64,000 nt of DNA, taken from Candidatus Marinacidobacterium sp. Its GTDB lineage: Bacteria > Acidobacteriota > Vicinamibacteria > Marinacidobacterales > Marinacidobacteraceae. The DNA is taken from the NCBI GenBank assembly GCA_965204755.1, contig OZ242011.1:1696001-1760000 (forward strand). Direction: 5' to 3'. This document shows, piece after piece, positions 45,841 through 62,677 of the stretch. The position numbers and the translations under genes were made by a program. Below the pieces are notes generated by a model that saw only the letters and a program-made list of their open reading frames with translations, did not search any database and had not been told where the DNA came from. Each line of letters starts with the position of its first letter. Within the stretch, counting starts at the first letter, position 1.

Positions 45841-46562
45841 CCGGCCGCGCCCTCACCCTCCTCGCTCTCGGCGCGCTCGCCGCCGGCGCCCTCCTCGGCT
45901 GCGGCGGCGGCGGAGGCGACGAGACTCCGGAACCGCCCGCCGCGGACTCGACCGCCGGCGAAGACGCCGCCCGCGAGGAGGCCCCCTCCATGACCGACAA
46001 CGCGACCGACGCCGGCGATTCCGAAACGGAAGACGCCGCCCCCGACATCGTGCCCGAAGGGCCGGTGGTCGCCTTCCGCACCACCCTCGGGGACTTCCGC
46101 ATCGAACTCTTCCACGACGACGCCCCGGAGACGGCGGAGAACTTCCTCCGCTATGTGGAGGACGGCTTCTACGACGGCACGATCTTCCACCGGGTCGTCC
46201 GCGGCTTCGTGGTCCAGGGCGGCGGCTTCACCGCCGAGATGGAAGAGAAGGAGACCCGGCCGCCGATCCCCAACGAGGCGCGGAACGGCCTCCTGAACAG
46301 CCGGGGAACGCTGGCCATGGCCCGCACCTCCGACCCCCACAGCGCCTCCGCCCAGTTCTTCGTGAACACCCGCGACAACGCGATGCTGGACCACACCGGC
46401 ACGACGGCGCGGGGCTGGGGTTACGCCGTCTTCGGCCGGGTGATCTCCGGAATGGAGACCGTGGACCGGATCGAGGCCGCCCCGGTGGTCAGCCGCGCCG
46501 GCCACAACGATGTCCCGGACACGCCGGTGGTCGTCGAGTCGGCCGCCGTCGTCTCCCGATAA
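45837..46562 (+). CDS. Cyclophilin-type peptidyl-prolyl isomerase, lipoprotein
   Basis: Lipobox LLGC, FHRVVRGFVVQGGG, GTLAMAR, QFFVN, GYAVFG. Confidence 0.92.
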   Translation: MTGRALTLLALGALAAGALLGCGGGGGDETPEPPAADSTAGEDAAREEAPSMTDNATDAGDSETEDAAPDIVPEGPVVAFRTTLGDFRIELFHDDAPETAENFLRYVEDGFYDGTIFHRVVRGFVVQGGGFTAEMEEKETRPPIPNEARNGLLNSRGTLAMARTSDPHSASAQFFVNTRDNAMLDHTGTTARGWGYAVFGRVISGMETVDRIEAAPVVSRAGHNDVPDTPVVVESAAVVSR

Positions 46563-46593
46563 CCCGCGGCGCCGCCCGCCGCCGGGCCGCGGT

Positions 46594-47322
46594 TCACTCC
46601 GGCCCGCAGACCGCGATCAGCACTTCCGGCAGGCCGGCGGCCCCGTCGAGCGGGTAGGGGGCGTGCCGGTCGGGGCCTTCGAGCGGCAGCAGCAGCAGGT
46701 TCCGCAGGCGATGGAGCAGCCGGGCCGCGCCCGGCGACCGGCGGGCCGCGGCGGCCAGCCGCCGGAAGTGCCCCGGCGGGCAGGGCGTCTGGCCGAACCA
46801 GGCGAGGGCCCCGAAGTCGGCGCGGAGCAGGGCCTCGAACTCGGCGAAGGCGTACTCCCGCACATGGAACGGGTTGTCCGGCCGGTCGGCGAGCGCCTTG
46901 CCGGGACTCACCACCCGGCGTTCGGGCGTGGAGCAGAGGAAGACCCCGCCCGGCGCCAGCACCCGCCGCGCCTCCCGGACGACGGCGCGGTCGTCCTCCA
47001 CATGCTCGATGGTCTCGAACGACACATAGAGGTCGAAACTGTCGGCGGCGAAGGGCAGCCGGGCGGCGTCGGCGAGCGTGCCGGTCAGCCGTCCGGCCCC
47101 GGATCCGGGAAGCGCGGCCTCCCGGAACGCCTCCTCCGAGCAGTCCGCGGACACCACCGGCCGCCCCCCGGCCCGCGCCAGCAACCCGGAGCCGTAGCCC
47201 GCGCCCGAAGCCAGGTCCAGCACCCGCTTCCCCTCCGCCATCCCGGCCGCCCAGCGGTACCGGGCGAGGTGCTGCCGCCGCAGCCACGGCGAAGCGAACC
47301 GGTGGAGGGCCAGGCGTTCCAT
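46594..47322 (-). CDS. Class I SAM-dependent methyltransferase
   Basis: HLARY, VLDLASGAGYG, SFETIEHV, NPFHVREY. Confidence 0.88.
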   Translation of the reverse strand: MERLALHRFASPWLRRQHLARYRWAAGMAEGKRVLDLASGAGYGSGLLARAGGRPVVSADCSEEAFREAALPGSGAGRLTGTLADAARLPFAADSFDLYVSFETIEHVEDDRAVVREARRVLAPGGVFLCSTPERRVVSPGKALADRPDNPFHVREYAFAEFEALLRADFGALAWFGQTPCPPGHFRRLAAAARRSPGAARLLHRLRNLLLLPLEGPDRHAPYPLDGAAGLPEVLIAVCGPE

Positions 47323-47465
47323 GCGAAGGCGGAATCGCGCCGCCCGCCGGCGGCGTCCGTCGGATATCTTGGCGGAAGGGCGGAAGGGGCTCGACTCGCC
47401 GGAGCGACCCCGACCCGCCGCCGCGCGCCGAACCGACCCGATATCCCGACTTACGCCGCCCGACG

Positions 47466-48248
47466 ATGACCGAACCGGCCGGCGGCGCCGGAACCCCGCC
47501 GGAGCCCCCGAACGGCCCGCCCCCGGGCATTTCCGCCTGTTTCCCGGCGTTCCACGACGCCGCTTCCATCGGCTGGGTGGCCCGCCGGGCCCGCGAGGCG
47601 CTGCTCGCCGCCGGAGGGGAATTCGAGATCCTGATCCTCGACGACGGCAGTCGGGACGAAACGCCGGCGGCGCTCGCGTCCCTCGAGTCCGAAATCCCGG
47701 AACTCCGACTGCTCCGGCACCCGGAGAACCGGGGCTACGGCGCCACCCTCCGCGACCTCTTCACCGCCGCCCGGCTGCCGCTCGTCTTCTACACCGACGG
47801 CGACGGGCAGTTCGACCCGGCGGAACTCGCCCGCCTGCTGGCCGTCCGGCGCCCGGAGACCGCCCTGGTGAACGGCTACCGGACGGAGCGCGCCTTCCCC
47901 CTGCTCCGCCGCCGGCTCGGCCCCCGGTTCCACCGGGTGGTGGCCGCCACTTTCGACCTGCCGCCGCTCCGGGACTGGGACTGCGACTTCCGGCTGTTCC
48001 GGCGCGACGCCGTCCCCCCGGAGACGATGACCTTCGCCGACGGCACCGCCGTCGTGGAATTCCTGGCCGCGTTCGCCCGCTCCGGGCTCCCCTTCGCCGA
48101 AGCGGAGGTGACCCACCGCGAGCGGCTGGGCGGAGAGAGCCAGTACTACCGCCCGGGGCCGGTGTTCGAGGGCCACCGGAACCTGCTGCGCCTCCGGCGC
48201 CGCCTCGGCGCCCCGCCGATCCGCTGGAGCGCCTGGCTCCGGGGCTGA
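47466..48248 (+). CDS. Glycosyltransferase family 2
   Basis: DDGSRD, NRGYGA, TDGDGQFD. Confidence 0.88.
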   Translation: MTEPAGGAGTPPEPPNGPPPGISACFPAFHDAASIGWVARRAREALLAAGGEFEILILDDGSRDETPAALASLESEIPELRLLRHPENRGYGATLRDLFTAARLPLVFYTDGDGQFDPAELARLLAVRRPETALVNGYRTERAFPLLRRRLGPRFHRVVAATFDLPPLRDWDCDFRLFRRDAVPPETMTFADGTAVVEFLAAFARSGLPFAEAEVTHRERLGGESQYYRPGPVFEGHRNLLRLRRRLGAPPIRWSAWLRG

Positions 48249-48291
48249 CCCGCCTCCGAAGTCCCTGCGCCGCCGGGCGGGATACCGGCGC

Positions 48292-49983
48292 CTACCGCCG
48301 GCGGTTCGCGACGCCGGCCCCCTGGCGAACGACCACCTCGCCGTCGCGCGCCGCCAGGTCGCCGATCTCTTCCCTCGCGCCGCCCGGCCAGACGACCTCC
48401 ACTTCCGACACCGTTCTTCCCTCCCCGGCCCCCAGCAGCGCGCGGGGATCGTTGGACGACAGGAAACTCCCCGACCGGCGCGCTTCCCGCCGCCGCCGGA
48501 CGCCGTCCTCCCCGGTGAAGAACACCACCGCGCCGGCCCCGTCGCGGGGGGAGGCGGTCCCCGCGAGCCGCAGCGCCACCGCCCGGCCGCCGCTCCGGTT
48601 GGCGTAGAGCGCCGCCCGGTCGTCCACATTGACGACCACCACTTCCGCCAGCCCGTCGCCGTCGAGGTCGCCGAAGGCGGCGCCCCGGCTCGAACGCTCC
48701 GGACTCTCCCAGGCGGTCTCGGCGAAGACCCCGCCGCCGGCGTTGCGGAAGACCTGGTTCGGCATGGCGTAGGCGGTTCCGCTGCCGGCCTCGGCGGCGT
48801 CGGGGTACACATGCCCGTTGGCGACGAACAGGTCCAGCCGCCCGTCCCCGTCGAGGTCGCTGAACCGGGTGCCCCAGCCCAGGTAGAACCAGCCCGGCGT
48901 CCGCAGGTCGTTCCGGGCGGTGCTGTCCTCGAAGAAGCCGCCGCCGGAGTTCCGGTAGGCGGTGTTCGTGTCGTGGGAGAAGTTGGTCACGAACAGGTCC
49001 GGCAACCCGTCCTCGTCGAAGTCGCCGGCGTCCACGCCCATCCCCGCCTGCGCCAGGCCGTCCATGTTGTAGGCCACTCCGGCGAACAACCCCCGCTCGC
49101 GGAACCGGCCGCCGCCCTCGTTGATCCAGAGGTGGTTGGGAACGGAGTCGTTCGCGACATAGAGGTCGGTGTCCCCGTCCCCGTCGAGGTCCGACGCGAC
49201 CACCCCCAACCCGTACCCCGGTTCCGCATCCTCGAAACCGGCGGCTTCGGTGGCGTCCTCGAAGGCGCCGTCCCCCCGGTTCCGGTAGAAGGCGTCCGCC
49301 GCCGGGACCAGGCCGGACGGCCCGCAGAAGACCGGCAGGCCGAACCAGATGCAACTCGCTCCCGCGCCGGGAAGCGGCAGCGACTCGATGGAGTCGGCGG
49401 TGTAGCCGAGGACGAAGAGGTCGAGGTCGCCGTCGGCGTCGGCGTCGAAGAAGGCCGCCGAAGCGGAGAACCCCGGGTGCGGCGCGCCGCCCGCCGCCGG
49501 CAGCCGGAGGAAGGTGCCGTCGCCCCGGTTCCGGTAGAGCGCGTTCTCGCCGAGGTTGGTCACATAGAGGTCGGGCAGCCCGTCGTCGTCGAAGTCCGAG
49601 GCCGCCGCTCCGTACCCCCAGCCGGCATCCCCGACTCCCGCCGCCTCCGTCCGGTCGGTGAACCGGAGCCCGCCCTCGTTGCGGAACAACCGGTTCGGCC
49701 GGCCGGGGCCGGGGGCGCGGTCCCGCAGCGGGGCGCCGTTCACCAGGTAGAGGTCGAGGTCCCCGTCGGCGTCGTAGTCGAGCAGCGCCGCGCCGCTCCC
49801 GAGCGAGGAGACGATGAACCGCTTCTCCGGTTCGCCGCTCACATTCTCGTACCGCAGACCGCTCGCCTCCGTGACTTCTTCCAGCCGGATTTGCGGCGGC
49901 GCGGCGGCCGGGGCCGGGAGCGCGACGGCTGCGGCGAGGAGCGCCGGCGTCCCGAGCGGCGCTCGGCGGGGGCGGTGTCTCAA
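48292..49983 (-). CDS. CRTAC1-like FG-GAP/ASPIC-UnbV protein
   Basis: Repeated DxDxDGxxDL motifs, AGMGVDAGD, SSRGAAFGD. Confidence 0.9.
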   Translation of the reverse strand: MRHRPRRAPLGTPALLAAAVALPAPAAAPPQIRLEEVTEASGLRYENVSGEPEKRFIVSSLGSGAALLDYDADGDLDLYLVNGAPLRDRAPGPGRPNRLFRNEGGLRFTDRTEAAGVGDAGWGYGAAASDFDDDGLPDLYVTNLGENALYRNRGDGTFLRLPAAGGAPHPGFSASAAFFDADADGDLDLFVLGYTADSIESLPLPGAGASCIWFGLPVFCGPSGLVPAADAFYRNRGDGAFEDATEAAGFEDAEPGYGLGVVASDLDGDGDTDLYVANDSVPNHLWINEGGGRFRERGLFAGVAYNMDGLAQAGMGVDAGDFDEDGLPDLFVTNFSHDTNTAYRNSGGGFFEDSTARNDLRTPGWFYLGWGTRFSDLDGDGRLDLFVANGHVYPDAAEAGSGTAYAMPNQVFRNAGGGVFAETAWESPERSSRGAAFGDLDGDGLAEVVVVNVDDRAALYANRSGGRAVALRLAGTASPRDGAGAVVFFTGEDGVRRRREARRSGSFLSSNDPRALLGAGEGRTVSEVEVVWPGGAREEIGDLAARDGEVVVRQGAGVANRRR

Positions 49984-51572
49984 CGCTCGCGCGCGAACCG
50001 CTCCGCTGCGGCGCGGAGGTCCTCGCGGTCCGGCCAGTCGGCCAGCGCCCGCTCGATCACTTCCCGCGCCGCGGCGTCCTCCCCGAGCGCCTCCAGCGCC
50101 TCCGCGTAGAGCAGGTGGTGGAGCGGCTCCGCCGGGGCGAGCGTGAGCAGCCGCTCGGACTCCGCGGCGGCGAGGTCGGCCGCCCCGTTCCCGATCAAGT
50201 GGGCGATGAGCGCCCGCTTGGGCGCACCCTCCCCCGGCCGGGCGACGATCGCCGTCTTGAGTTCGTTCGTCCGGTCGGAGACGCCCTTCAACTCGGCGAA
50301 CCGCTCCAGGCGCTTCCGGCCGGCGGCGGATTCCTCCGGGACTTCGCTGCGGGCGAGCAGGTTCCCCAGGTGGAGATGCGGCTCGGGAACGAGCGGCGCC
50401 GCCGCGGCGGCCTCGCGGAATTCGGCGAGCGCCGCCTCCCGCTCTCCGGTCCGGGCGAGCGCCAGGCCGAGGATGACGCGCGCGTTCGCCTGCTGTTCGC
50501 GGGTCTCCGGGTTTCCGGGCGGGTAGTCGTCGGCGTTCGCGGCCTCCCCCGGGGCGGGCAGCGCCGGCCGCAGCACGGGGATCGCCTCGGCGCTGCGCCC
50601 GGTCTCGTGGAGCAGCGCGCCGAGCCGGAACCGCGCCCGCCGGTGCTGCGGATCGAGCCGCAGCGTCTCCCGGTAGCGCGCCTCGGCGTCGGCGTCCTCC
50701 CGCAGGTAGTGCAGGACATCCCCGCTGCGGAAGTGCGCCTCCGCGTTCTCCGGGGCGGCGTCCGCGGCCCGCTCGCAGGCGGCCTGCGCCGCTTCGAGCC
50801 GCTCCTCGCGCGAGCGGAGGAGGCAGATCTCGAGCAGCGCGCCCGGATCGCCCGGCCGGAGCGCCAGCGCCGCCTCGAGCCGCCGGCCGGCTTCCCCGAA
50901 ACTCCCCAGCCGGGAGTGGAGCGCCCCCAGGTGGTGCTGCGCCTCGAAGGAGCCGGGATCCGACTGCGCCGCGGCGGTCAGCGCGGAAAGTCCTTCGGCG
51001 CCCCGGCCCTGCTGGACGAGCAGGACTCCGAGCGGGGCGAGCACTTCCGCCCGGCCCGGATGCTCGGCGCGCAGGGCTTCCAGTTCCCGGACCGCCTCGC
51101 CGCCCCGTCCCCGCGCGGCCAGCACCAGGGCCAGGTCGCGCCGCGCTTCAGGGTGCGCCGGATCCCGGTCGAGCGCCCCCCGCAGCGCCGCTTCCGCGCC
51201 GTCCAACTCGCCCAGTTCGCGGAGCGCCGTGGCCCGGAGGAAGAGCCCGTTCGGGTTCGCCGGCGTCAGCGCGGCGAGCGCCGCGCCGAGGTCCGCGGCT
51301 TCGGCGAAGGCCCCGAGGCGCAGCCGCGCCACCGCGAGCATCCAGAGCGGCGCCGGGTCGTCCGGTCGGGCGCGGCGCACTTCCTCCAGGTGTTCCGCCG
51401 CCTCCCCGATCCTCCCGTCCTCGACCAGTCGGCGCGCCTCGGCGAGGTCCGGCGGCTGCCCGGGCTCGGCCGTCGCGGGAAGTCCGACGAGCAGCGCGCC
51501 CAGGACCAGGCCGGGCAGCGGGGAGGGGGCCGGCCGCCGGGCGTCGCGGCGCGGCGTCGGGGCGGGGGGCAT
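49980..51572 (-). CDS. Tetratricopeptide repeat protein
   Basis: Signal-like N-terminus, many TPR helices, coupled to the CRTAC1-like gene. Confidence 0.85.
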   Translation of the reverse strand: MPPAPTPRRDARRPAPSPLPGLVLGALLVGLPATAEPGQPPDLAEARRLVEDGRIGEAAEHLEEVRRARPDDPAPLWMLAVARLRLGAFAEAADLGAALAALTPANPNGLFLRATALRELGELDGAEAALRGALDRDPAHPEARRDLALVLAARGRGGEAVRELEALRAEHPGRAEVLAPLGVLLVQQGRGAEGLSALTAAAQSDPGSFEAQHHLGALHSRLGSFGEAGRRLEAALALRPGDPGALLEICLLRSREERLEAAQAACERAADAAPENAEAHFRSGDVLHYLREDADAEARYRETLRLDPQHRRARFRLGALLHETGRSAEAIPVLRPALPAPGEAANADDYPPGNPETREQQANARVILGLALARTGEREAALAEFREAAAAAPLVPEPHLHLGNLLARSEVPEESAAGRKRLERFAELKGVSDRTNELKTAIVARPGEGAPKRALIAHLIGNGAADLAAAESERLLTLAPAEPLHHLLYAEALEALGEDAAAREVIERALADWPDREDLRAAAERFARER

Positions 51573-51722
51573 CGGGGTGAGGGGATGGGGGAAGGGATCG
51601 GGCGTATTGTCCGAAATCCGCCGCCGCTCCGCCGGGGAAGGGGGGCGGGAAGGGAGGGGGCCGACCGATGGCGCCCGGGGTTTTGCGCGCCTGTTTCCCG
51701 GCGATTACGATCCTGCCGAACG

Positions 51723-54002
51723 ATGTTCCTCCGCCTTCGCCGAACCGCCCGGCCCGTTCTCCCGCCGCCTTCTTCGTCCCGCTCCCCGCTCTCCTCCGGG
51801 CGCCGGGCGGGCGCGCTCGCCGCCGCCGGCCTCCTCCTGCTCGCGGCGACCGCCGCCGGCCAGGCCCGGGCGACCGACGACCGGGAGAAGGAGAACGAAC
51901 CGAGCGAGAAGGAACTCATCGCGGCGCTCCCGGAAGCGCACCGGATCTGGCTGACCGAAGAAGTCACCTACCTGATCACCGACCGGGAGAAGCGGGTCTT
52001 CCTGAGTCTCGAGTCCGAACTCGCCCGGAAGTCCTTCGTGGACGCCTTCTGGCGGAAGCGCGACCTCAACCCCTCGACCCCGGAGAACGAATTCCGCGAG
52101 GAGCACTACGCGCGGCTGGAATATGTGAACAACTGGTTCGGCCGCGACACCTTCCGCCCGGGATGGCAGACCGACCGGGGCCGCTACTACATCCTGCTCG
52201 GCAAGCCGCGCACCATCCAGAACTACGAAGCGCGCGACGAGATCTACCCGGCCGAACTGTGGTTCTACAACAACTCCGAGTTGAAGAGGTTCGGCGTGCC
52301 GCCGTTCTTCTACCTCCTGTTCTGGCGGCGCCACGGCATCGGCGAACTCCAACTCTACGACCCGATCTCCGACGGGCCGCCGGCGCTCCTCACCGGCTAC
52401 CAGCCGGAGCGCCGGGACTTCCGCGACGAAGTCGAACGCGCCTACGAGATCCTCTACGAATTCGATCCCGAAATCGCGAATGCGGCGATGTCGTTCCGCA
52501 CCGACGAACAGGACATCACCCGTTTCCAGGCGGTGCCGTTCGGGACGCTCTCGCTGCTGCAGGACATCCACGAAGTCCCCTTCCGGGGTCTCGACGACAG
52601 TTACGCCGACCGGCTCGACTTCGAGCGCGGCGCCATCGAGGCGGACTACCTGTTCACCTATGTCCCCGGAAACGGGGCGATGGCGGTCCTCCCCGGCCCG
52701 GAAGGCGCGTCGTTCCTCCACTGGGTGATCCAGGTGGACGCCCAATACACCTCGTTCGTCCGCAACGCCGACCGGAACACCTACGACACCGAGTTCATCG
52801 GCACCGTCGAAGTCGTCCTGCGCGACGACCCGGAGCGAATCGTCACCGAGTTCCGCAAGGAGTCCTTCGTTTCGCTCACCGAAGAGCAGTCGCGCGGCGC
52901 GCTCCGCACGCCGTTCTCCTGGGCCGGGATCACGCCCCTCGTTCCCGGCGAACACCGGGTGACCATCGTCCTCCGCAACCGCGCCTGCGGCTCCCGGGAC
53001 GAAGAAGACTGCGCCAAGAGTTACACCCTGCTCGAAGGGGAAGTGAGCGCGCCGCCCCCGGACGAAACCCCCCGCGTCGGCGACCTGGTGCTCGGACGGA
53101 GATTCGAAGCGCAGCGGCCGGTCTATCGGCCCTTCCGCCTGGCGTCGTCCGCCGTCGTCCCCAACCCGGTCGCCGTGTACACCATCGGCGACGACCTGCT
53201 GGCGGCGGTGGCGCCGAGCGCCGCGCCCGACGGCTCCACCGTCCGCTTCCGCGTCCTCAGTCGCGAACCGCTCACCGACGGCCAACTCGTCCACGAAGTC
53301 ACCCTGCCGGCGGAGCCGGACACGCTGACCGGCTTCACCGCGCTGGAGACCCCCTTGGTGGACCTCGGCGCCGGCCGCTACGAAGTCGTGGCTTCGCTCC
53401 TGGATTCGAGCGGCGGCGACCTCTCTTCGAGCCGCGCCGAGTTCTCCGTTTCACCGCGCGAAGCCCTCCCGGAAGCCGGATTCCACGGATTCATGTTGCC
53501 TTTCGGCCCGGAGAACCCGGGCCTCACCAGTCTGGCCCTCGGCGAACAACTCATGCGGCTCGAACGGGGAGACGAAGCCCGCCCGTTCGTGGAAGCGGCC
53601 CACGACCTCGCCCCCCGCCTGGGACGCGCCCGGGAACTCCTCGCCCGCCTGGAGATCGAAGCGGGTCGCATCGAGCAGGCCGTCGAACTGCTGGAACCGG
53701 TCTATGCCGAAGTCCGGGACCGCTACGACCTGCTCATCGTGCTCGGTGAGGCCTACTTCCACCTCTCCCGCTACGAGGACGCCGCGGACCTCCTCTCCCG
53801 CGCCGCCGCCCTCCGAAGCCCGGACACCCACATCCTGAACCTGCTGGGCCTGTCCCGCCTCCAGGTGTCCGACTTCCCCGGCGCCCGCGAAGCCTTCGAG
53901 CGGTCCCTGTCCCTGGACGAAGAACAACCGGAGGTCCGAGAAGCCCTCTCCCGCGTCGAAGAAGCCGCCCGCGCCTCCTCCCCGTCGTCCCCGCCGGGCT
54001 GA
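51723..54002 (+). CDS. GWxTD domain protein with C-terminal TPRs
   Basis: WLTEEVTYLIT, FWRKRD.NPST.ENE, GWQTDRGRYYI. Confidence 0.9.
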   Translation: MFLRLRRTARPVLPPPSSSRSPLSSGRRAGALAAAGLLLLAATAAGQARATDDREKENEPSEKELIAALPEAHRIWLTEEVTYLITDREKRVFLSLESELARKSFVDAFWRKRDLNPSTPENEFREEHYARLEYVNNWFGRDTFRPGWQTDRGRYYILLGKPRTIQNYEARDEIYPAELWFYNNSELKRFGVPPFFYLLFWRRHGIGELQLYDPISDGPPALLTGYQPERRDFRDEVERAYEILYEFDPEIANAAMSFRTDEQDITRFQAVPFGTLSLLQDIHEVPFRGLDDSYADRLDFERGAIEADYLFTYVPGNGAMAVLPGPEGASFLHWVIQVDAQYTSFVRNADRNTYDTEFIGTVEVVLRDDPERIVTEFRKESFVSLTEEQSRGALRTPFSWAGITPLVPGEHRVTIVLRNRACGSRDEEDCAKSYTLLEGEVSAPPPDETPRVGDLVLGRRFEAQRPVYRPFRLASSAVVPNPVAVYTIGDDLLAAVAPSAAPDGSTVRFRVLSREPLTDGQLVHEVTLPAEPDTLTGFTALETPLVDLGAGRYEVVASLLDSSGGDLSSSRAEFSVSPREALPEAGFHGFMLPFGPENPGLTSLALGEQLMRLERGDEARPFVEAAHDLAPRLGRARELLARLEIEAGRIEQAVELLEPVYAEVRDRYDLLIVLGEAYFHLSRYEDAADLLSRAAALRSPDTHILNLLGLSRLQVSDFPGAREAFERSLSLDEEQPEVREALSRVEEAARASSPSSPPG

Positions 54003-54135: not shown

Positions 54136-55665
54136 ATGACGAAACGCCGACCCGTCCCGGCCTTGGTCACCCGCCAGTGGATGCCCGGCTGGAACGAGAT
54201 GGCGTGGAAGCCCGGCGAACATCGCGCCGAACCTCCGCGCCACTTCTACCAGTTCAGCCTTTCCGCGCCGGAACTCCGGGCGCTCAGCGGCGTCCATCGG
54301 CGCACGCAGGAACGCAAGAGCGCCGCCGCCGATCTCGGCATCCAGCGCCGCCACCAGAAGGGGCGGTCCGACGAGATCGCGCGATTCGTCCGCTCGGGTT
54401 ACCCGTGGTCCATACTGAACGCGCGGAAGAGGGAGTCGTCCGCCTTTCGGGATCTGCGCCAGCCCGGATGGCTGCCGACGGCCATCGTAGTGAACATCCG
54501 GACCCGCGAGCAGGATCTGAATGGCGTCGGCGTTGCTCCCGGTGACCTTCTCGAAGTTCGAGACGACCCGAACGATCCTCGGCGCGCCGAAGTACTGCTT
54601 CCGGCGGATTTCGACGGCAGCGGTTGGCGCCCGGCGTCTCTCGACCCTATCGAGGTGATCGACGGACAGCACCGGCTCTGGGCCTTCGAGGCGGAGGATT
54701 CCGCGAACGATTTCGAACTCCCTGTCGTGGCGTTCCACGGGCTGGACCTCAGTTGGAGGGCCTATCTGTTCTACACGATCAACATCAAGCCGAAGCGGAT
54801 CAATCCCAGCCTCGCCTTCGACCTCTACCCTTTGCTTCGCACCGAAACATGGTTGGAGCAAAGCGGGACTTATCCGACCTATCGAGAGCACCGCGCCCAG
54901 GAAATCACGGACATCCTGTGGGCCCATCCGACGAGCCCGTGGCATCATCGAATCAACATGCTCGCCGAACCGGGATACGGCGGTCGGCAGGTGACACAGG
55001 CGGCCTGGGTTCGCTCGCTCTCGGCTTCCTTCCTGAAGAACTGGGAGGGGCCGGGAGTGAAGATCGGCGGCCTCTTCGGAGCGCCGTGGGATGGGCCGGG
55101 GACCGCGCTTCCGTGGGCCAGACCACAACAGGCCGCCCTCATCATTCTCGCCGGTTGCGAGGTGCGCGATGCGATTCGTGTTTGCGGGGAACCGTGGGCG
55201 GATGCGCTCCGGGTTCGCGATGACGACGGCGGACCGAACGGTGACGCCGCGTTCGTAGGCAAGGACAACCTTCTGAACCAGGATCAGGGGATCCGCGTGT
55301 TGCTCCAAGCGGTGAACGACCTGCTCTTCGTTCGCGCTCACGATCTTGCGCTACCGGGTTTGTCCCTCGACGAAGACGAGAGCGACGAGGACGGCGTAAC
55401 CATCAAAATGTTCGTCGAATGGTTGCGAACGCAGACGAGCCTGCGCGGCTTTCTCAACGAGATCGCTCGGAGGCTCGCCACCTACGATTGGCGCTCGTCC
55501 AAGGCGCCGGGCCTGACTGACGAGCAGCGAGTGTTGAAGGCCGGTTTCCGGGGAAGCGGTGGATATCGGGACCTGCGTGAGCATGTGCTGCGCCATCTCG
55601 CATCCGACACCACCGAATCGGTGTCCGACTCCGCGCGCCGCGTGATCTCTTTCCTGGGCTACTGA
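54136..55665 (+). CDS. DGQHR-domain (DndB/ParB-Srx-like) protein
   Basis: GIQR, LPTAIVVN, VIDGQHRL, F..IN..PKRI motifs. Confidence 0.88.
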   Translation: MTKRRPVPALVTRQWMPGWNEMAWKPGEHRAEPPRHFYQFSLSAPELRALSGVHRRTQERKSAAADLGIQRRHQKGRSDEIARFVRSGYPWSILNARKRESSAFRDLRQPGWLPTAIVVNIRTREQDLNGVGVAPGDLLEVRDDPNDPRRAEVLLPADFDGSGWRPASLDPIEVIDGQHRLWAFEAEDSANDFELPVVAFHGLDLSWRAYLFYTINIKPKRINPSLAFDLYPLLRTETWLEQSGTYPTYREHRAQEITDILWAHPTSPWHHRINMLAEPGYGGRQVTQAAWVRSLSASFLKNWEGPGVKIGGLFGAPWDGPGTALPWARPQQAALIILAGCEVRDAIRVCGEPWADALRVRDDDGGPNGDAAFVGKDNLLNQDQGIRVLLQAVNDLLFVRAHDLALPGLSLDEDESDEDGVTIKMFVEWLRTQTSLRGFLNEIARRLATYDWRSSKAPGLTDEQRVLKAGFRGSGGYRDLREHVLRHLASDTTESVSDSARRVISFLGY

Positions 55666-55667
55666 TC

Positions 55668-57020
55668 ATGGCGTTGTCCGAGGACACGCAGGCGGCACTG
55701 TCGAACGCCAGTGACCTTGCGATTCTCGCGGCGATGGGCCGGCTTCATGAACAGTTCGCGAACGGTCGATGGCTCAGTACGGAGAATCGTTACCGAACGA
55801 ATGTCATAGACGAAATCGAGAAAAACGCGCCGAAGCGAAACGAACTTCGCGACGACCATCTCGTCGAGTACATCGCGGTATCCTCGGTGTTGCATTGCTT
55901 CGATGGGTGGAGTTTTTTCGGCCGAGCGCTCGAGGCGGAAATGACCGGCGCCCCTGATGTGTCCAAGCACCTCGGCTATTACGCGGAAATGCGCGCGGCG
56001 ATGTCAGTGCTCGCCTCACAAGGGGTCGGTGTCTTCAGGTGGACGCATGTCGTCGTGGATCGGGCCGGCGGCGTCCGATTCGTCCAGGACAGGGAGAACC
56101 GCGGTACCCACAGGTTCCTATGGCCGACTCTCGAACACTGGACGAACCGGAGGGGAGAATCCGTTCTGTTCAACATCGTGGAGCCGGACGGCGTACCGCT
56201 TTCCACTTGGTTCGCCGCGTTTCGTCCGTCCGGCGGAGGCTTGGGCGCCTTGGCTCGTGGACTCATGAAGCGATGGGGGCTCGATCTTGCGCGTTTGGCT
56301 GCGGATCGAGAGGCGCGCAATGACGCCAGTTACCGGCCGAACACGCTGGCGGCGTCGGACCCGCGAGGGATCGCGGAGGTGCTGCGATCGATCACGGAGA
56401 TCTGGAGACTCTGCGAACCGCATTCCGTCGGGGATTTCCGCCTGTTCGACAACCACCTGCTCGGGCAAGGTCTGGAGTGGCTTTCCCGGAGTGGCGACGA
56501 CGAAGAACTGGATCCGCAGGAGAGACCGGAAGATTTCGTCGGGCGAGTCGGTTCGATGTTGAACGGTTTGGACTTGCCCTCGGAATCGCGAGCAACGATG
56601 CGCCGGTTCCTGCTGGCGAAGGGAGGGACCGCGACGCTGTTGACGGACGCTCAGGGAAATGTGGGCCGGGCGGCCGCTGACCACTCGAAGCAGGTGCTGG
56701 CGCGGGCGGCGGTCTTGTTGCGCCTGGCGAGCGGTTGCGCCCGGAGAGTCGTGGAGGAGGCGGACGCAGATCCTCGGGACTTGTTCGGGTTCTGGTGGCG
56801 GAGCCGCGCCGTCAACCGACGACTGTGGCCGACGGACTCTACGCCGCCACCCTCCGCTGAACTCTGGACCGACGCCGAGGTGGCGGTCCAAAACCTGGAG
56901 GCGTGGCTGGACGATGACGCGCCGGACAAGACCAGACTCGAGTTCTGGAAGCGCTGGGCCGCGGAAGCGGCGGTGCTCTCCACGACGGAGCGCATCTGCC
57001 TGTGGGGGTTGGGCCTGTGA
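55668..57020 (+). CDS. Hypothetical protein with HEPN-like motif pattern
   Basis: 2 nt after the DGQHR stop. HLGYYAEMRAAMSVLASQG ... GTH ... DREARNDASY. Confidence 0.7.
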   Translation: MALSEDTQAALSNASDLAILAAMGRLHEQFANGRWLSTENRYRTNVIDEIEKNAPKRNELRDDHLVEYIAVSSVLHCFDGWSFFGRALEAEMTGAPDVSKHLGYYAEMRAAMSVLASQGVGVFRWTHVVVDRAGGVRFVQDRENRGTHRFLWPTLEHWTNRRGESVLFNIVEPDGVPLSTWFAAFRPSGGGLGALARGLMKRWGLDLARLAADREARNDASYRPNTLAASDPRGIAEVLRSITEIWRLCEPHSVGDFRLFDNHLLGQGLEWLSRSGDDEELDPQERPEDFVGRVGSMLNGLDLPSESRATMRRFLLAKGGTATLLTDAQGNVGRAAADHSKQVLARAAVLLRLASGCARRVVEEADADPRDLFGFWWRSRAVNRRLWPTDSTPPPSAELWTDAEVAVQNLEAWLDDDAPDKTRLEFWKRWAAEAAVLSTTERICLWGLGL

Positions 57021-58156
57021 AGTACATGGGCTCCAAGCGGGTCATGCTGCAAAACGGGCTGGGGGACATCCTGGCGAGCGAAGGGCAGACGGCCTCCCGC
57101 GTCGTGGACTTGTTCTGCGGCAGCGGTTCGGTGTCCTGGTTTGCGGCGACGAAACTGCGCGTCCCGGTCCTGGCGTGCGATCTGCAGCGGTTCGCCACGA
57201 CTCTCGCCGGGGCGGTGATCGAGCGGACCGGCGTCATCGAGATGAAGGACATCGAGACGCGCTGGTTGGCCCGGGCGGGGCGGGTGAGGTCCCGATTGGC
57301 CGGGTGGGCCGAGGCCAAGGATCTCGACGAGTCGAATCTCCGGACCGAGGCGCTGCAGCGCCGCGCCCGGAAACTGTGTTCTCTCCCGCTCGCCGGGGCG
57401 CGGCACTTGATCTGGCAGCACTACGGAGGTCACTACTTCAGCCCCAGGCAGGCGCTCACCTTCGACGCCATGCGTCGCGCGCTCCCGGAGGATCGCGAGT
57501 TTCGAACCTCATGCCTCGCGGCCATGGTGATCGCGGCGAGCCAGTGCGCCGCTTCTCCGGGCCATACCGCGCAGCCGTTCAAGGCGTCGGGCGGCGCTGC
57601 GAAGTACCTCCGCGAGGCGTGGGCCCGCGACCCGATGCTCCTCGTCCGTCGAGCGGCGCACAGGCTTTGTGCGCTTCATGCAGCGCGACCGGGAGTTGCG
57701 AAGGAAGCGGACGCAAACGAGGTCGCCTCGACGCTGCGTAAAACGGACTTGGTGTTCGTGGATCCCCCGTACTCGGGCGTCCAGTACAGCCGCTTCTACC
57801 ATGTGTTGGAAACGGTCGCTCGCGGTGCCTGCGGTCCCGTCGACGGAGTCGGCCGATACCCGCCGCCTCCCGAGCGCCCGAACTCGCGTTACAGCCGGGT
57901 GGGGAGGTCGAGGCAGGCCATGCGGGAGTTGCTGGAGACGCTGGCGGGTCGAGGGTGCACCGTCGTCGTGACCTTTCCGGAGGAGGAATGCAGTAACGGT
58001 CTGTCGGGAGAAGAGATCGAGAACATCGCGGGACGGGTGTTTCGCGTGGAGGCCAAGACGGTCACCTCACGCTTCAGCACGCTCGGCGGCAATCGAACGA
58101 ATCGCAGCGCGCGCAAGATCACCAGGGAACTCATCCTGGTCTTGAAGCGGCGCTGA
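57017..58156 (+). CDS. N6-adenine DNA methyltransferase (D12/Dam-FokI-like)
   Basis: KYMGSK, motif I VVDLFCGSGSVS, motif IV FVDPPY, YSRFYHVLET. GTG overlaps the upstream stop (GTGA). Confidence 0.88.
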   Translation: MKYMGSKRVMLQNGLGDILASEGQTASRVVDLFCGSGSVSWFAATKLRVPVLACDLQRFATTLAGAVIERTGVIEMKDIETRWLARAGRVRSRLAGWAEAKDLDESNLRTEALQRRARKLCSLPLAGARHLIWQHYGGHYFSPRQALTFDAMRRALPEDREFRTSCLAAMVIAASQCAASPGHTAQPFKASGGAAKYLREAWARDPMLLVRRAAHRLCALHAARPGVAKEADANEVASTLRKTDLVFVDPPYSGVQYSRFYHVLETVARGACGPVDGVGRYPPPPERPNSRYSRVGRSRQAMRELLETLAGRGCTVVVTFPEEECSNGLSGEEIENIAGRVFRVEAKTVTSRFSTLGGNRTNRSARKITRELILVLKRR

Positions 58157-58292
58157 GCGGGAGACTTCGAGGCCACCGCACGACACCGCCGCGGCGCCCC
58201 TCCGACCGGTGGGGCCAGGGCGAGGAGTGGCCGCGCACCGGAGCGGCCGATTTCGGCCCATCGCGGAAATCGGGATCGGTGCGCGCCGGTCG

Positions 58293-59552
58293 CTACGGCC
58301 CGAGGGTCGAGGCCGGGACGATGTTCACCCCGTCTTCCCGGCGGTAGGCCGCGCCGCCCGGGATCACGACGACCAGCGTCCCGCTTTCGTCGTACTCGTC
58401 GCGGTTGCCGCGCATCCGGGCGCGCAGGCGCAGCAGGTTCGCCGCGCCTTCGTCGGTCCACCGTTCGCCCAGTTTCACTTCGAACGCCGCCCAGCGTCCG
58501 TCGCCGGCGTCCACGACCGCGTCCGCTTCGAGTCCGTCCTTCTCTCGATAATGGAACACCTCGGCGCCCGCGGCTTGCGCGTGGATGCGCAGGTCGCGGA
58601 CGACCAGCGACTCGAACAGGAAGCCGAGGAACCGCAGGTCCGCGAGCAGCCGCTCCGGAGTCACGCGGAGCGCCGCGGCGGCGAGTGACGGATCGACGAA
58701 GTGGCGCACCGGGGTCTTTCGGAGCGTGGTCCGCGAACGCAGGTGCGGCGCCCACGCCGGCTGGTCTTCCACCACCATCAGCCGTTCGAGCGCGTCCAGG
58801 TAGCCCTGCGCGGTACCGGCGTCGATCGCCGCCCCGGTCGTGCCGGTTTCCGCGGCCAAGCGGGAGACGGCGGCCGGCGTCGCCACATTCCGGGCCAACG
58901 ACCGGAGCAGGCGTCCGACCCTCACCGGATCGCGGGCCGCGCCATCGACGCGGGACACATCGGCGCGGCGTGTCTCCTCCAAGTAGTCCCGGTTCGCCCC
59001 CCGGGCGTCCTCTGCGGAAAGCCCGAGATTCCCCGGCCACCCGCCGACGCACACGATCTCCGCAAGGGTCGAAACACTCAGCGCGGCCGGCTTCGCCCGG
59101 GCAGGCTTCCCGGAGAGCAGCCCGGCGAGGGAAACCTCGCCGCTCGAAAGCCCCGCCTCGAACAGCGACAGCGGACGCATCCGCAACCGCGAGAACCGCC
59201 CGGCCCCGGTGTGCCGCGTGATGTCGTCCGCCGGGACCGCTGACCCGGTGAGGATGAACTGGCCGCGTTTCCGGCGGTCGTCCACGGCGCGCCGGACCTG
59301 GTTCCAGACCGCCGGCGCCAACTGCCACTCGTCGAACAACCGGGGAACCGCCCCGGCGAGCGCCGCCTCCGGGTCGGCGTCCACCAGCCGCCGGGCGTTC
59401 TCGTCCGTGTCCAGCAGCGCTTCGCTCCGGGCGATCCGGCGCGCGGTGCTCGTCTTGCCGCATGCCCTCGGGCCTTCCACGACCACCGCCCCGGCGTAGG
59501 AGAGACGTCTCGCCAGTTCTCCGTCGGCGATGCGCGGGAGGTAAGTCGTCAT
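58293..59552 (-). CDS. AAA_14 + DUF4143 ATP-binding protein
   Basis: GPRACGKT, LFDEWQ, FILTGSA, GAGR, GFLFES, C-terminal EADAV...FEVKLG PD-(D/E)xK-like end. Confidence 0.9.
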   Translation of the reverse strand: MTTYLPRIADGELARRLSYAGAVVVEGPRACGKTSTARRIARSEALLDTDENARRLVDADPEAALAGAVPRLFDEWQLAPAVWNQVRRAVDDRRKRGQFILTGSAVPADDITRHTGAGRFSRLRMRPLSLFEAGLSSGEVSLAGLLSGKPARAKPAALSVSTLAEIVCVGGWPGNLGLSAEDARGANRDYLEETRRADVSRVDGAARDPVRVGRLLRSLARNVATPAAVSRLAAETGTTGAAIDAGTAQGYLDALERLMVVEDQPAWAPHLRSRTTLRKTPVRHFVDPSLAAAALRVTPERLLADLRFLGFLFESLVVRDLRIHAQAAGAEVFHYREKDGLEADAVVDAGDGRWAAFEVKLGERWTDEGAANLLRLRARMRGNRDEYDESGTLVVVIPGGAAYRREDGVNIVPASTLGP

Positions 59553-59607
59553 GGTGGGCGCGCTCCCGACCGGCGGGGGCCTCTTCGCCGTCGGTGCGAA
59601 GTCTATT

Positions 59608-59664
59608 CGGTGATTCGGAGGCGTCTCATTCGGTGATTCGGCGACACCACAGCCGGTGATTCGG
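59608..59664. promoter_or_regulatory. Three CGGTGATTCGG direct repeats at 23-bp period
   Basis: Exact 11-mers start at 59608, 59631 and 59654, upstream of the DUF4143 ATPase. Confidence 0.6.
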
Positions 59665-60337
59665 AGGCCACGGCTCGCCACGCACAGGGGCAGCCGCTGC
59701 CTCCCGCATGAGTCCCCAAGATCATGATCGGGAAGCCGTCCTGCGTGTGTGCGATGGCGTTCGGATCGCCTTGATCAGGAGCGAAGTCCGGTAAGGCGAG
59801 GACGAGTAGAACGGTCAACCTGAGCGCCGGAGTCCCGGTCGGCTCCGACCCTGAGGGCGAGCGGACGCTCGCGGAAGCGAGCGCCGACACGACCTGCGCC
59901 GGTCACGCGATCCTCACCCCCCGCCGCTCCGGCGAAACTCCGCTCGCCGAGACGCCGGGACTCACCCTGTGGAGGCCGACCCCGCCGTCCCTCGCCGCGA
60001 AGTCGTCCGCCGTGGCCCGGCGCTCGATGCTCCCCATTGGGCTCGCCCCCTCCCGCCCCTCCCGCAGGAGAAGAACTTTTCCGGCGTCAGCCTCGCCGTA
60101 GTCTCCGCCACCAACAAGCCGGGGATGACCACTCCTGGCGTCCGTACCGCGGAGAATTGTCGGAGCACCTGTACAATCGCAACTCGCGCAGACGAGCGAC
60201 CGACTCCGACCACGGCGGTTCTCCTGTCTCCATGCCCCCGCCCGACGCTCGCGCCGCACAGCTCCCAACTACGATCTTCGCTTCCTCTCACCCAGAGACT
60301 AGGCACCCAACGCCCTAACCGCGAGAGAGTTGCCGAG

Positions 60338-62677
60338 ATGGACGCGCTGCTGAACCGACTGCGAGAGTTCGACGCCCTGCGCGATGTAGGGGAAGGCGGA
60401 GATCGAGTCCTTCACGCCACAAAAAAGGCGATTCCACCGACTCACGCCGATGAGGCGATCTTCTCTCAATTGACGCCGACACTTGCAGACGCGATGAAGG
60501 CTAGAGGGATCCGTCGTCTCTATCAACATCAGGCGGACGCCATCAAGGCCGGTATCCAAGGTCGCAATGTCGTTCTGCAGGCGCCGACGGCGAGTGGCAA
60601 ATCCTTGGCCTTCCAAGTCCCAATGCTGAACACCCTCGCGGGTGACGAGGAGGGCCGCGCGCTGATGGTCTATCCGACGAAGGCCCTGTCCTTGGATCAG
60701 CGCGAGCAATTGATGCGGTTGACTGACGAAATGCCGAACCGCCGAATACAGTCCTGGTGGTACGACGGAGACACTTCGTCGGAGGAGCGAGCGCTGATTC
60801 GCCAGAATCCCTTCGAGATCGTGTTCACGAATCCGGACATGCTGCACCGGAGTTTCCTCGGTCACGCCGAGAAGTGGATCTCGTTCTTCGATGGCCTGCG
60901 CTGGATCGTCGTGGACGAGATCCACGAGTACCGAGGTTACTTCGGTTCGAATGTGTCCATGATTCTCCGTCGGCTACTTCACCACTTGGCCGCTCGCGGA
61001 GTCCATCCCCAACTCTTCCTCAGTTCCGCGACTTGTGCGAATGCCCGGGAACACGCGCAGAACCTGACCGGACTCGACTTCGAAGAAGTGGACGCGACAT
61101 CCAGCATGAGACCACGGCGGGCGTTCTTCTTCATTCGTCCCGACATACCGGACTTCAAGTACTGGGACATCCTGCAATTGCGGACAGTAAACGCCGGTCT
61201 GGCCTGTCTCGCCTCCGGACAGTCCGTGCTTGGATTCTGTCCAACACGCAAGTTCGCGGAGCATTGTCACCGAACTGCCATACAGGAAGTCGCCAAGCGA
61301 CAGGCGGAGGGGGGCGCAGATGGCCTCGATCCAAGTGCCATCAAGGTCTTCCGGGCAGGCCTGAGTACAGAAGATCGCCATGGGATTCAGAAGGGGCTGA
61401 AGCGCGGTGATGTACGGCTGGTCTTCACCACGAATGCCTTGGAACTCGGTATCGACATCGGAGGCTTGGACGGTGTCATATTGGCGGGTTTTCCGGACAG
61501 CATGATGTCCGCGTGGCAGCGTATCGGGCGCGCCGGGCGCAATTGGCAGTCGGACGCGTTCGTTCTGTACTTCTCCCGAAACAATCCACTCGACCGGTTC
61601 TACGCCGCCAATCTTCCGGTGTTCCTAGAAAAGCCCTTGGACGACCTCGTCATCAACTCGGAGAACGAGGACGTCATCGAACGCCATGTCCCCTGTCTGC
61701 TCTATGAGACGCCGGACGTCCGTCCATCCTCTACGATCCTCGGCCGGGCCCTGAGCGACGCAGCGCTGGCGAAACTGCGATCCGGCGCACGGCCGATCCG
61801 ATCCGAGAAGTGGCGTCCGCACTTCGGTGTGGACATCCGCGGCGGCGGGGCCGGGATGTTCAAACTGGAGCGAGGAGCCGAAGAGATCGGCACCATCTCG
61901 GCACATCATCAGTTCCGGGAGGCCTACCTTCGAGCCATTTACATGCACGGCGGTTCGACCTATCGCGTTGAGGAGATCACGCAAGGCGGGGACGGCGGAA
62001 CGATCAAGTTGAGTGTCGCCGAGCCGCACCTCCGCACGAACCCATCCCTCTTCACGATCCTTACCCAGCAAGACATCTACGACGGTCTCTCTTGGTCTTT
62101 GGGAGATTGGGGCGTTGAGGCCCTTTACGGCAAGGTGAGCATCCTAGAGAGGTTGGTTTCCGTAGAGGAAGTGGACGACCGGACCGGCGAAGTCCGCAAC
62201 AAATGGACACCCGACCTGCAGCCGCCGCAGTTCACGAATTCCCACGCCTTCTGGATACGGGGAACGGCCGCCTCGTCTCCCGACGGCGGTCTGCTCGCGC
62301 TGCAGCACATACTCCGCGTTGGAGTGCCGTTCGTCATCCCCATAGACACGCATGATGTGTTTCCGTACGCCGACGGGAAGGAACGAATCGCATACCTCGT
62401 CGAGAGTTATCGCGGCGGGATCGGCATCGCTCGCAAGGTGCTGGAACGCTGGCCAGAAATCCTACGGAAGGGTACGGAGGTGGCTGATCGGTGCGAATGT
62501 CGGAAGGGCTGTCCGAATTGCATCGTTCCACCGCGCTCGACGGAAGAACTCGACAAGAGGGAAGGGATCGCGTTCGCCGAGGAATTGCTCCGCGTCGGCG
62601 AAGGCAGCCCCGATTCCAAATTCGTGCGCGGGCTCTGGACGCCCATCACAGATCCATCGGGAACCGATTCGGCCTGA
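60338..62677 (+). CDS. DEAD/DEAH helicase with C-terminal Zn-binding DUF1998-like domain (MrfA/Hrq-like)
   Basis: LYQHQ, APTASGKS, YPTKAL, VVDEIH, SAT, TNALELGIDIG, QRIGRAGR, CECRKGCPNC. Confidence 0.9.
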   Translation: MDALLNRLREFDALRDVGEGGDRVLHATKKAIPPTHADEAIFSQLTPTLADAMKARGIRRLYQHQADAIKAGIQGRNVVLQAPTASGKSLAFQVPMLNTLAGDEEGRALMVYPTKALSLDQREQLMRLTDEMPNRRIQSWWYDGDTSSEERALIRQNPFEIVFTNPDMLHRSFLGHAEKWISFFDGLRWIVVDEIHEYRGYFGSNVSMILRRLLHHLAARGVHPQLFLSSATCANAREHAQNLTGLDFEEVDATSSMRPRRAFFFIRPDIPDFKYWDILQLRTVNAGLACLASGQSVLGFCPTRKFAEHCHRTAIQEVAKRQAEGGADGLDPSAIKVFRAGLSTEDRHGIQKGLKRGDVRLVFTTNALELGIDIGGLDGVILAGFPDSMMSAWQRIGRAGRNWQSDAFVLYFSRNNPLDRFYAANLPVFLEKPLDDLVINSENEDVIERHVPCLLYETPDVRPSSTILGRALSDAALAKLRSGARPIRSEKWRPHFGVDIRGGGAGMFKLERGAEEIGTISAHHQFREAYLRAIYMHGGSTYRVEEITQGGDGGTIKLSVAEPHLRTNPSLFTILTQQDIYDGLSWSLGDWGVEALYGKVSILERLVSVEEVDDRTGEVRNKWTPDLQPPQFTNSHAFWIRGTAASSPDGGLLALQHILRVGVPFVIPIDTHDVFPYADGKERIAYLVESYRGGIGIARKVLERWPEILRKGTEVADRCECRKGCPNCIVPPRSTEELDKREGIAFAEELLRVGEGSPDSKFVRGLWTPITDPSGTDSA

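Follow-up and report, generated by a model that had tools for sequence, protein, structure and literature searches.

A DGQHR and HEPN-fold gene pair with exchangeable methylases, an unnamed candidate for methylation-linked defense

What might a DNA methylase be doing in an operon that has no recognizable restriction endonuclease beside it? The question arises from a 64,000-nt stretch of a Candidatus Marinacidobacterium genome (assembly GCA_965204755.1, contig OZ242011.1, positions 1,696,001 to 1,760,000 of the forward strand; hereafter, the window), in which three consecutive genes (A, B and C) encode a DGQHR protein, a predicted HEPN-fold protein and a predicted N6-adenine methylase. Judged from gene arrangement and predicted structures, this cassette is a real, widespread and unnamed candidate for methylation-linked defense, its function being a prediction.

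A conserved gene pair and its exchangeable methylases

Using gene B as the anchor, we collected 55 genome loci from many phyla, one archaeon included. A was present in 54 of them; a close relative of C followed B in 35, a distant D12-class methylase preceded the pair in 3 and neither methylase was found in 17. A second set was anchored on A and comprised the best 80 of 143 metagenome matches plus 8 matches in viral contigs. B was present in 78 of the 79 A-anchored loci with at least 300 nt of downstream sequence, immediately next to A in 77. Further, the distances in the A and B trees were correlated (r = 0.855 over 107 loci; FastTree, after removal of five duplicates, of broken genes and of loci whose length precluded labelling), and the aligned B homologues ranged down to approximately 25% identity. 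A and B are a fixed core, nearly inseparable and co-diverging. Because the gene order recurs in many phyla, the arrangement is not a product of chance. Conservation of the whole triplet, a check proposed in the first-pass annotation of this DNA, held for the A and B pair, which is kept across phyla, but not for the methylase, which is exchangeable.

The exchange of methylases was evident in 98 loci that carried both A and B and had at least 900 nt on each side (a few duplicates and 8 C-anchored loci included). A methylase lay within 200 nt in 93 of these loci and belonged to one of five classes: C-type (64), Dam-like (17), distant D12 (5), MT-A70 (4) or beta-class N4/N6 (3). The partners occurred upstream, downstream or in convergent orientation (upstream or convergent in 17 of the 93). 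On the A tree, methylase class changed at least 19 times among 102 labelled loci, compared with a mean of 29.5 and a minimum of 24 for shuffled labels. By this count, the classes are clustered on the tree yet have been swapped many times. Since methylases of different folds stand in different positions, the signal for the core would be the DNA mark or its product rather than a protein contact. The idea that A and B are passengers of an ordinary restriction-modification (R-M) pair was rejected, as no endonuclease lies beside C in the window and C directly follows B in 64 of the 98 loci.

Gene C scored 46.9 bits against the D12-class N6-adenine methylase family PF02086 (cut-off 22) and also matched the PADLOC MTase_II model. 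Motif I (DLFCGSG, residues 31-37) is, like the DPPY motif, invariant in 32 of 32 sequences, and the motifs follow the alpha-class order. The initial call of an N6-adenine methyltransferase is well founded on these grounds. A search for C-type methylases in 400 other genomes of the phylum returned none at E ≤ 1e-30 (4 candidates scored per genome). MT-A70 methylases were not detected in five genomes of loci without a Dam-like or C-type neighbor, a search in which the control was also silent.

We found cassettes on plasmids and viral contigs, whereas no A homologue was found in 50,697 phage records and a single-protein scan of viral contigs for B returned none. The cassette is mobile and patchy in occurrence. 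Its neighbors include a DarTG-like pair in Zymomonas and other defense-like genes in G012, a relative of the same genus as the genome under study (G000); the copy in G006 sits among housekeeping genes. The 30.9-kb plasmid of Z. mobilis (L171) carries a type I R-M system with an extra ATPase, an A-B-Dam cassette, a DUF4433 and macro-domain pair and two toxin-antitoxin (TA) pairs. In the archaeal locus (L019:9314-14491), the A-B pair has no adjacent methylase and adjoins a Schlafen protein, an ABC ATPase and a PLD-helicase cluster. Insertions or frameshifts break the cassettes of six loci (L003, L053, L081, L101, L023 and L056), which suggests frequent inactivation.

Predicted structures of the core proteins

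Gene A passed the cut-off for the DGQHR family TIGR03187 (64.4 bits; cut-off 58.85), scored below that of PF14072 (DndB; 27.1 of 29.1 bits) and reached 60.9 of the 450 bits needed for TIGR04172; no PADLOC model matched at E ≤ 0.1. Several Arg and Asn residues are, like the DGQHR motif itself, invariant in 107 of 107 homologues. In the AlphaFold2 (AF2) model (pLDDT 86), the amino-terminal domain (residues ~34-243) is predicted to adopt the ParB/Sulfiredoxin (Srx) nucleotide-binding fold. The best structural rows were PadC (Z 7.2; root-mean-square deviation (rmsd) 3.8 over 122 residues), ParB-N (5.6), KorB (5.0) and sulfiredoxin (5.0), followed by SerK, and ParB/Srx folds filled ranks 1, 2 and 4-7. 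SspE was also among the rows, weakly (Foldseek rank 1 at E 0.34; Z 3.4 in the structure comparison), and Foldseek gave no match at E ≤ 0.001. The carboxy-terminal half of the model is all-helical and has no clear structural match, and Pfam returned no DUF262, DUF1524 or HNH match for the protein. Gene 1 had been annotated as a DGQHR protein, and the family score, the motif and the structural list all agree with it. From its model, A is predicted to be a sensor or switch. We discarded the possibility that the cassette is a Dnd remnant, given that A scores under the DndB cut-offs and no dnd genes were present among the window open reading frames (ORFs) scanned.

Gene B belongs to a large family (1,131 representatives at 50% identity, E ≤ 1e-10) yet is invisible to Pfam (0 families at E ≤ 1), NCBIfam and PADLOC 2.0. 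No Pfam family was significant for 85 of its homologues (25 of 26 weak families inspected), and comparison with PDB sequences yielded only chance prion-protein rows (E ≥ 0.03). An Atlas search returned unnamed clusters and YaaC at 0.77, the latter as a lead only. The AF2 model of B (pLDDT 89.4, pTM 0.92) was compared with 48,161 chains. The top row was 2hsb (AF0298; Z 9.5, rmsd 2.9 over 126 aligned residues), and the next were 4nqf (Z 8.4), 3o10 (sacsin HEPN; 8.1) and 1ufb (7.9), with more HEPN rows after them. We take 1ufb to be a HEPN protein, although its title does not say so. The HEPN helices of B correspond to residues ~63-117, 207-222 and 339-365, with large inserts. As HEPN domains occupy the top rows and the whole target domain is covered, B is predicted to be an expanded HEPN-fold protein with the four helices of that domain, and to act as the effector. 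Re-alignment of the Foldseek match list added nothing. The guess that gene 2 was HEPN-like was a good one, all four of the best matches to the model being HEPN or HEPN-homologue domains.

The conserved residues of B are compatible with an active site. Nine polar or aromatic residues (H76, Y104, Y105, R109, H148, R217, S221, Y222 and R346) do not vary among the 107 homologues. Three of them belong to the RX4Y motif, whose N218 is kept in 105 of 107. In HEPNs of the AF0298 and AbiV types, the His of the RX4-6H motif is lost and another His stands in the insert between helices 2 and 3 (PMC3710099). His148 is a candidate for this alternative catalytic His by the position of its segment rather than by residue superposition. 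RNase activity is a fair prediction for B, not a given. Hence, the RNase-like effector anticipated at first keeps its HEPN fold but exchanges the canonical His for a putative AF0298-type site.

Target site and possible mechanism

The identity of the replacement methylases points to a target site, an argument that is new here for the cassette. Among the Dam-like partners, 18 of 22 are 47-61% identical to the Dam of the Z. mobilis CP4-group plasmid cassette, an A-B-Dam arrangement found on the 30,952-bp plasmid of strains CP4 and B-12526. RG(m6A)TCY, where m6A is N6-methyladenine, was reported at 98.6% in CP3, the only strain of the CP4 cluster among nine newly determined methylomes, and was absent from the other eight (PMC8088579, Table 4); the ZM4 methylome also is without RGATCY in the available text (PMC8432527). 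A Dam-like enzyme with RGATCY specificity has a precedent in M.CsaI (PMC3526280), and the best solved relative of one Dam-like partner is M.DpnII-1. A methylase that stands beside a BglII/BstYI endonuclease and a helix-turn-helix (HTH) gene on a plasmid of Acinetobacter sp. TR3 shares 43-46% identity with the distant D12 partners, and the same neighbor occurs in Dyadobacter. The three-gene layout matches that of the Acinetobacter baumannii A118 cluster, whose methylase makes RG(m6A)TCY, as determined by deletion, and which Dam methylation was proposed to mask (PMC10287943). Relatives of the MT-A70 partners adjoin BglII-family endonucleases in L091, L098 and L119, and the beta-class enzyme of L111 closely resembles the methylases that accompany a BglII endonuclease in L004. 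C itself shares 24% identity with the methylase of L173, which is BglII/BstYI-linked. In the three genomes of methylase-less cassettes that we searched, a conventional Dam was encoded elsewhere in two (L019 and L036), so that RGATCY would be covered there, but not in the third (L034). The replacement methylases thus appear to converge, and not at random, on BglII/BstYI-linked or RGATCY-type enzymes, from which we predict RGATCY, or the GATC within it, as the target of C.

Because methylases of different classes were swapped and yet converge on one site, A and B may be reading the RGATCY mark. We tentatively propose, at somewhat less than an even chance, that A and B read methylation of RGATCY (or of its GATC core) and trigger B, as a restriction or abortive-infection system without a recognizable DNase. 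C would methylate the adenine of RGATCY, or of the GATC core, in the host DNA. A, alone or with B, would bind the site and use its predicted ParB/Srx nucleotide pocket as a switch, with DNA binding and NTPase activity as presumed functions. Unmethylated sites on entering phage or plasmid DNA, or a loss of host methylation, would throw the switch and thereby activate B, a predicted HEPN-fold enzyme with an AF0298-type site and putative RNase activity. B would then halt translation or growth and block the invader. Any methylase covering the site could replace C, which would explain the swaps. The operon, the folds, the conservation and the swaps are the basis for this proposal, and the function itself is what we infer from them. 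A DGQHR sensor with an RNase-like effector had been suggested from the start and is also our best reading, modified in that A and B are the fixed core and the methylase is exchangeable. We regard as doubtful a broader version, in which a ParB-fold NTP switch reads RGATCY and gates an RX4Y HEPN RNase for restriction without a DNase while the sensor core and a graft domain are reused elsewhere. The reuse would comprise the DGQHR and RGATCY-methylase core with membrane proteins as well as nuclease-DGQHR-HEPN fusions; the graft domain, 210 amino acids (aa) long, would connect Septu- and McrBC-like NTPases with that mark.

Several observations weigh against the proposal that A and B read RGATCY. 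A plasmid record labelled ZM4 (NC_013788.1) carries the cassette though the ZM4 methylome is without RGATCY, which we attribute, without proof, to strain history; likewise, CP3 is linked to the cassette via the CP4 group rather than its own assembly, and L173 to the A118 cluster by layout rather than alignment. The beta-class partners of L047 and L062 are related only distantly and have no connection to BglII, TSPPY-type enzymes may make N4-methylcytosine (m4C), and 5 of the 98 loci have no adjacent methylase. The site is not avoided in G000, where the ratio of observed to expected (O/E) counts is 0.98 for GATC and 0.75-0.92 for the RGATCY hexamers, no lower than for other GATC palindromes. 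RGATCY counts in the cassette genes are 0.90-0.98 of shuffled sequence versus 0.77 in 270 control ORFs. Nor did we find a methylome for a carrier of a C-type methylase, the cultured R. tumorigenes 932 included, as far as the available text goes (PMC10064268). As for the proteins, the carboxy-terminal domain of A shows no recognizable DNA-binding fold, Foldseek found nothing with the B model (E ≤ 0.001) and a Z of 9.5 is modest for a helical model. B lacks the canonical RX4-6H His, for which all 107 homologues have Tyr, and no biochemistry existed for class II (PF05168) HEPNs as of PMC7641770.

Other explanations use the same genes differently. B could be a catalytically silent or ligand-binding HEPN scaffold while A responds to unmethylated sites by nicking DNA or depleting nucleotides. 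The Tyr at the RX4H position of B would suit such a scaffold, as would the related DGQHR proteins of 382/383 aa, which accompany the same types of methylase and a membrane protein where B is absent, and nuclease and NTPase activities are stated for the ParB/Srx family (PMC10853773). However, B keeps its nine invariant residues, with three His/Arg candidates, over 107 homologues as divergent as ~25% identity, and an alternative His site was proposed for the best-matching HEPN family (PMC3710099); we consider a silent B unlikely. The polarity might also be the opposite, as in SspE, so that a methylated self site licenses the NTPase of A and the methylase is needed for activity rather than protection. 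SspE activity is stimulated by DNA modification. The protein is a DGQHR-fold relative of A by the weak rows described above, and convergence of the methylases on one site fits this polarity equally. But the replacement methylases derive from ordinary protective R-M pairs and A lacks an HNH domain, making an SspE-like switch somewhat more improbable than a silent B. We give the same low credence to a Metis-like system in which the methylase seeds the chromosome with m6A and A senses m6dAMP, or a similar product, from host DNA degraded by phage and activates B. Such sensing would accommodate the nucleotide binding of the ParB fold, the interchange of unrelated methylases and the copies without a methylase in genomes that encode a Dam; Metis systems with their own methylase have also been predicted (10.1101/2025.11.05.686725). 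Any adenine methylase would then serve, however, whereas those swapped in converge on RGATCY/BglII-type enzymes. In addition, Zymomonas is already more than 99% GANTC-methylated (PMC8088579), some partner methylases look like m4C enzymes, and the terms DGQHR, ParB, HEPN and DndB do not occur in the Metis paper.

Two further explanations seem to us more remote. A and B could guard the methylase in the manner of PrrC, binding it and firing once it is targeted by a phage inhibitor, for example a DNA mimic. Translational coupling to C is tight in most loci and HEPN RNases do guard R-M systems (PrrC, 10.1101/2024.10.26.620412; PD-lambda-5 as restriction-modification plus abortive infection (RM+Abi), PMC9519451). 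Against this stand partners of different classes and folds, located upstream or convergent in 17 of 93 loci or missing, because one protein interface is unlikely to survive such swaps. The abortive guard offered earlier as an alternative likewise fits badly with structurally unrelated methylases replacing one another, and we find it quite improbable. An equally small chance is left for a role outside defense, either as a selfish addiction module with methylation as the antidote to post-segregational killing or as a DndB-like regulator of methylation. Plasmid copies among TA genes and the G006 copy among housekeeping genes would agree with this, and DndB was described as a regulator (PMC10853773); the defense-island neighbors of other loci, and the grafting of the same methylase and domain module onto Septu- and McrBC-like effectors, would not. 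Addiction and defense are not mutually exclusive.

Were the RGATCY-reading proposal true, a sequence-specific methylation check carried out by a ParB switch together with an RNase fold would be added to the known defenses and some seemingly orphan RGATCY methylases would be explained. It would become possible to test what role DGQHR proteins have where no phosphorothioate system is involved, and whether HEPNs of the RX4Y type (class II) act as enzymes; restriction without a DNase would also give AF0298-type HEPN sites their first function. Z. mobilis CP4 and B-12526, with the cassette on their plasmid, are harmless cultured carriers, where the cassette may then be an overlooked transformation barrier. 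Screens in dam+ Escherichia coli would miss such a system, as a dam+ host could hide the phenotype.

Known systems, modular relatives and genomic setting

The closest printed layout is that of the MAE_28990 HEPN operons, described in silico in 2013 (PMC3710099), which share the combination of ParB, HEPN and methylase genes with the cassette. The MAE_28990 HEPNs keep the Rx4-6H motif, whereas B has RX4Y, is 450 aa long and has no significant Pfam HEPN match; the available text gives no mechanism or target site for those operons. The opinion that the triplet is not a named system therefore stands in that no PADLOC model matched A or B, but the layout had been printed. The AF0298-type HEPN-T/class II proteins (PF05168; 2hsb) and AbiV, like B, keep the Arg and lose the RX4H His, and H148 of B is the candidate counterpart of their conserved upstream His, as far as described in the text at hand; B is about three times longer than AF0298-type HEPNs and has no MNT partner and no PF05168 sequence match. 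PD-lambda-5, a HEPN protein and methyltransferase forming a compact RM+Abi system with broad protection, shares the logic of the cassette, but the available text describes no DGQHR gene (PMC9519451). B and C did not match the PADLOC PD-Lambda-5 models at E ≤ 0.1; PD-Lambda-5_B matched one Dam-type partner weakly (1.3e-7).

SspE, GmrSD, DndB and DpdB share with A the DGQHR nucleotide-binding (ParB/Srx) fold and a link to DNA modification. Unlike SspE and GmrSD, A has no DUF262 NTPase and DUF1524/HNH nuclease, and the modification in the cassette is base methylation. Type II R-M systems of the BglII/BstYI family, such as the A118 cluster (PMC10287943), are donors of replacement methylases and would follow the same RGATCY logic of self and non-self, with a PD-(D/E)XK endonuclease where the cassette has ParB-fold and HEPN-fold proteins. 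The BglII family was not detected in G000, a search in which the control gave no signal and the genome is 89% complete. Metis is, like the cassette, a methylase-dependent abortive defense for which versions with their own methylase are predicted, but its domains differ (PUA-like/phosphoesterase, HAD phosphatase and membrane protein) and its signal is sequence-independent in the text available (10.1101/2025.11.05.686725). Neither Pfam nor structure comparison gave a phosphoesterase, HAD or membrane-protein signature for A or B. Dazbog had been singled out as the comparison to exclude; A and B matched no PADLOC model (E ≤ 0.1), nor did seven more A or B homologues match a Dazbog model, the library presumably holding such models; the name Dazbog does not occur in the preprint consulted. 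Literature on DGQHR, DndB or ParB with HEPN or methyltransferase did not describe the cassette, in a search with most subscription journals outside its range; nor did the available portions of PMC10853773, PMC12839542, 10.1101/2024.10.26.620412 and PMC10064268. The text of PMC3974934 contains RGATCY.

Parts of the cassette recur in other combinations. In the five loci with a distant D12 partner, A carries the extra 210-aa domain at its amino terminus. The domain, which has no name in Pfam or Atlas, is also fused to a Septu PtuA-like ATPase (41% identity) encoded after the same methylase in L153 and L155 and to a McrB-like NTPase (26%) in L119. The viral contigs L153 (6854-10549) and L155 (6908-10709) encode a D12 methylase, the PtuA-like ATPase with the graft domain and a PtuB-like HNH protein, a set that may be a methylase-coupled Septu variant. 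McrBC-like pairs with a DUF2357 partner lie beside MT-A70/BglII or D12 methylase genes in L119:9943-15349, where the McrB-like NTPase carries the graft domain, and in L185:3235-8173. A Dam-like or D12 methylase, a probable multi-pass membrane protein and the 382/383-aa DGQHR protein occur together in L172:2275-4825 and L173:807-4774. DndB-like proteins of 720-765 aa adjoin the A-B cassettes in L021:6950-9247 and L062:11870-14044; the 765-aa protein of L021 has a weak carboxy-terminal Swt1-HEPN match.

The cassette and its motifs are listed in Table 1. The junction sequences confirm the tight coupling of the three genes noted at first, and the GTGA overlap predicts translational coupling of B and C. 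No sigma-70 promoter and no convincing terminator were found at the cassette. Its GC content (0.650) is, as had been noted, below that of the flanks (0.738 at 44000-54000; 0.720 at 58157-60000) and of the genome (0.717). Upstream lies a gene of the GWxTD/TPR type, which scored 103.9 bits against TIGR04514 (cut-off 28). In four relatives (G012, G029, G015 and G007), the DNA 3' of the GWxTD gene holds other cargo or core genes and no cassette, so that the cassette is inserted at a variable site, in agreement with the insertion after a core gene proposed originally. G012 has the cassette at another site (65-68% DNA identity), next to restriction-like, Fic-like and DUF1156-like ORFs (named from translations only), and of the family's 28 genomes, 3 have gene B, G000 among them. 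A scan of the 36 other window ORFs (PADLOC at E ≤ 1e-15, NCBIfam at E ≤ 1e-25) returned generic helicase matches only; neither there nor in two downstream ORFs was there a dnd, ssp or dpd operon or a restriction endonuclease, just as the first-pass annotation had stated for the window.

Table 1. Genes, junctions and conserved motifs of the cassette, in window coordinates
Feature	Position	Strand	Description
Gene A	54136-55665	+	509 aa; open reading frame
Gene B	55668-57020	+	450 aa; open reading frame
Gene C	57017-58156	+	379 aa, GTG start; open reading frame
A-B junction	55663..55670	+	TGA-TC-ATG: stop, 2-nt gap, start
B-C junction	57017..57020	+	GTGA start/stop overlap, 4 nt
DGQHR motif of A	54661..54675	+	Residues 176-180; invariant in 107/107 aligned homologues
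His148 of B	56109..56111	+	T-H motif after helix-2/3 beta insert; H in 107/107
R217-N-x-x-S-Y222 of B	56316..56333	+	RX4Y where HEPN RX4-6H expected
DPPY motif of C	57761..57772	+	Residues 249-252; invariant in 32/32

Some features of the genome and window stand apart from the cassette. G000 is nearly devoid of ACGT and AGCT (O/E 0.04 each) and avoids CTAG (0.13) and GTCGAC (0.2), a scarcity that suggests long-standing restriction pressure. The cassette (54136-58156) contains 0 ACGT and 0 AGCT, compared with typically ~10 and ~17 in homologous cassettes elsewhere, and would thus have been purged in, or derived from, the G000 lineage. Convergent with gene C is a gene for an AAA_14 and DUF4143 protein (58296-59555, minus strand), which matches the PADLOC candidate PDC-S01 (E 2e-68) and has a different position in G012. 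A DEAD/DEAH helicase with an MrfA-type Zn domain follows (59969-62677, plus strand; GC 0.60) and adjoins an alkaline phosphatase gene. The same helicase and phosphatase pair is adjacent in G012 but distant from the GWxTD gene, which places a rearrangement point near 59600. At the other end of the window, an SNF2-family helicase unrelated to the cassette (1954-5076, plus strand) gave generic ZorD/DpdE matches under NCBIfam cut-offs. Elsewhere in G000, a second D12-class methylase is encoded near an insertion sequence (IS)-like ORF (C1:1255608-1256192).

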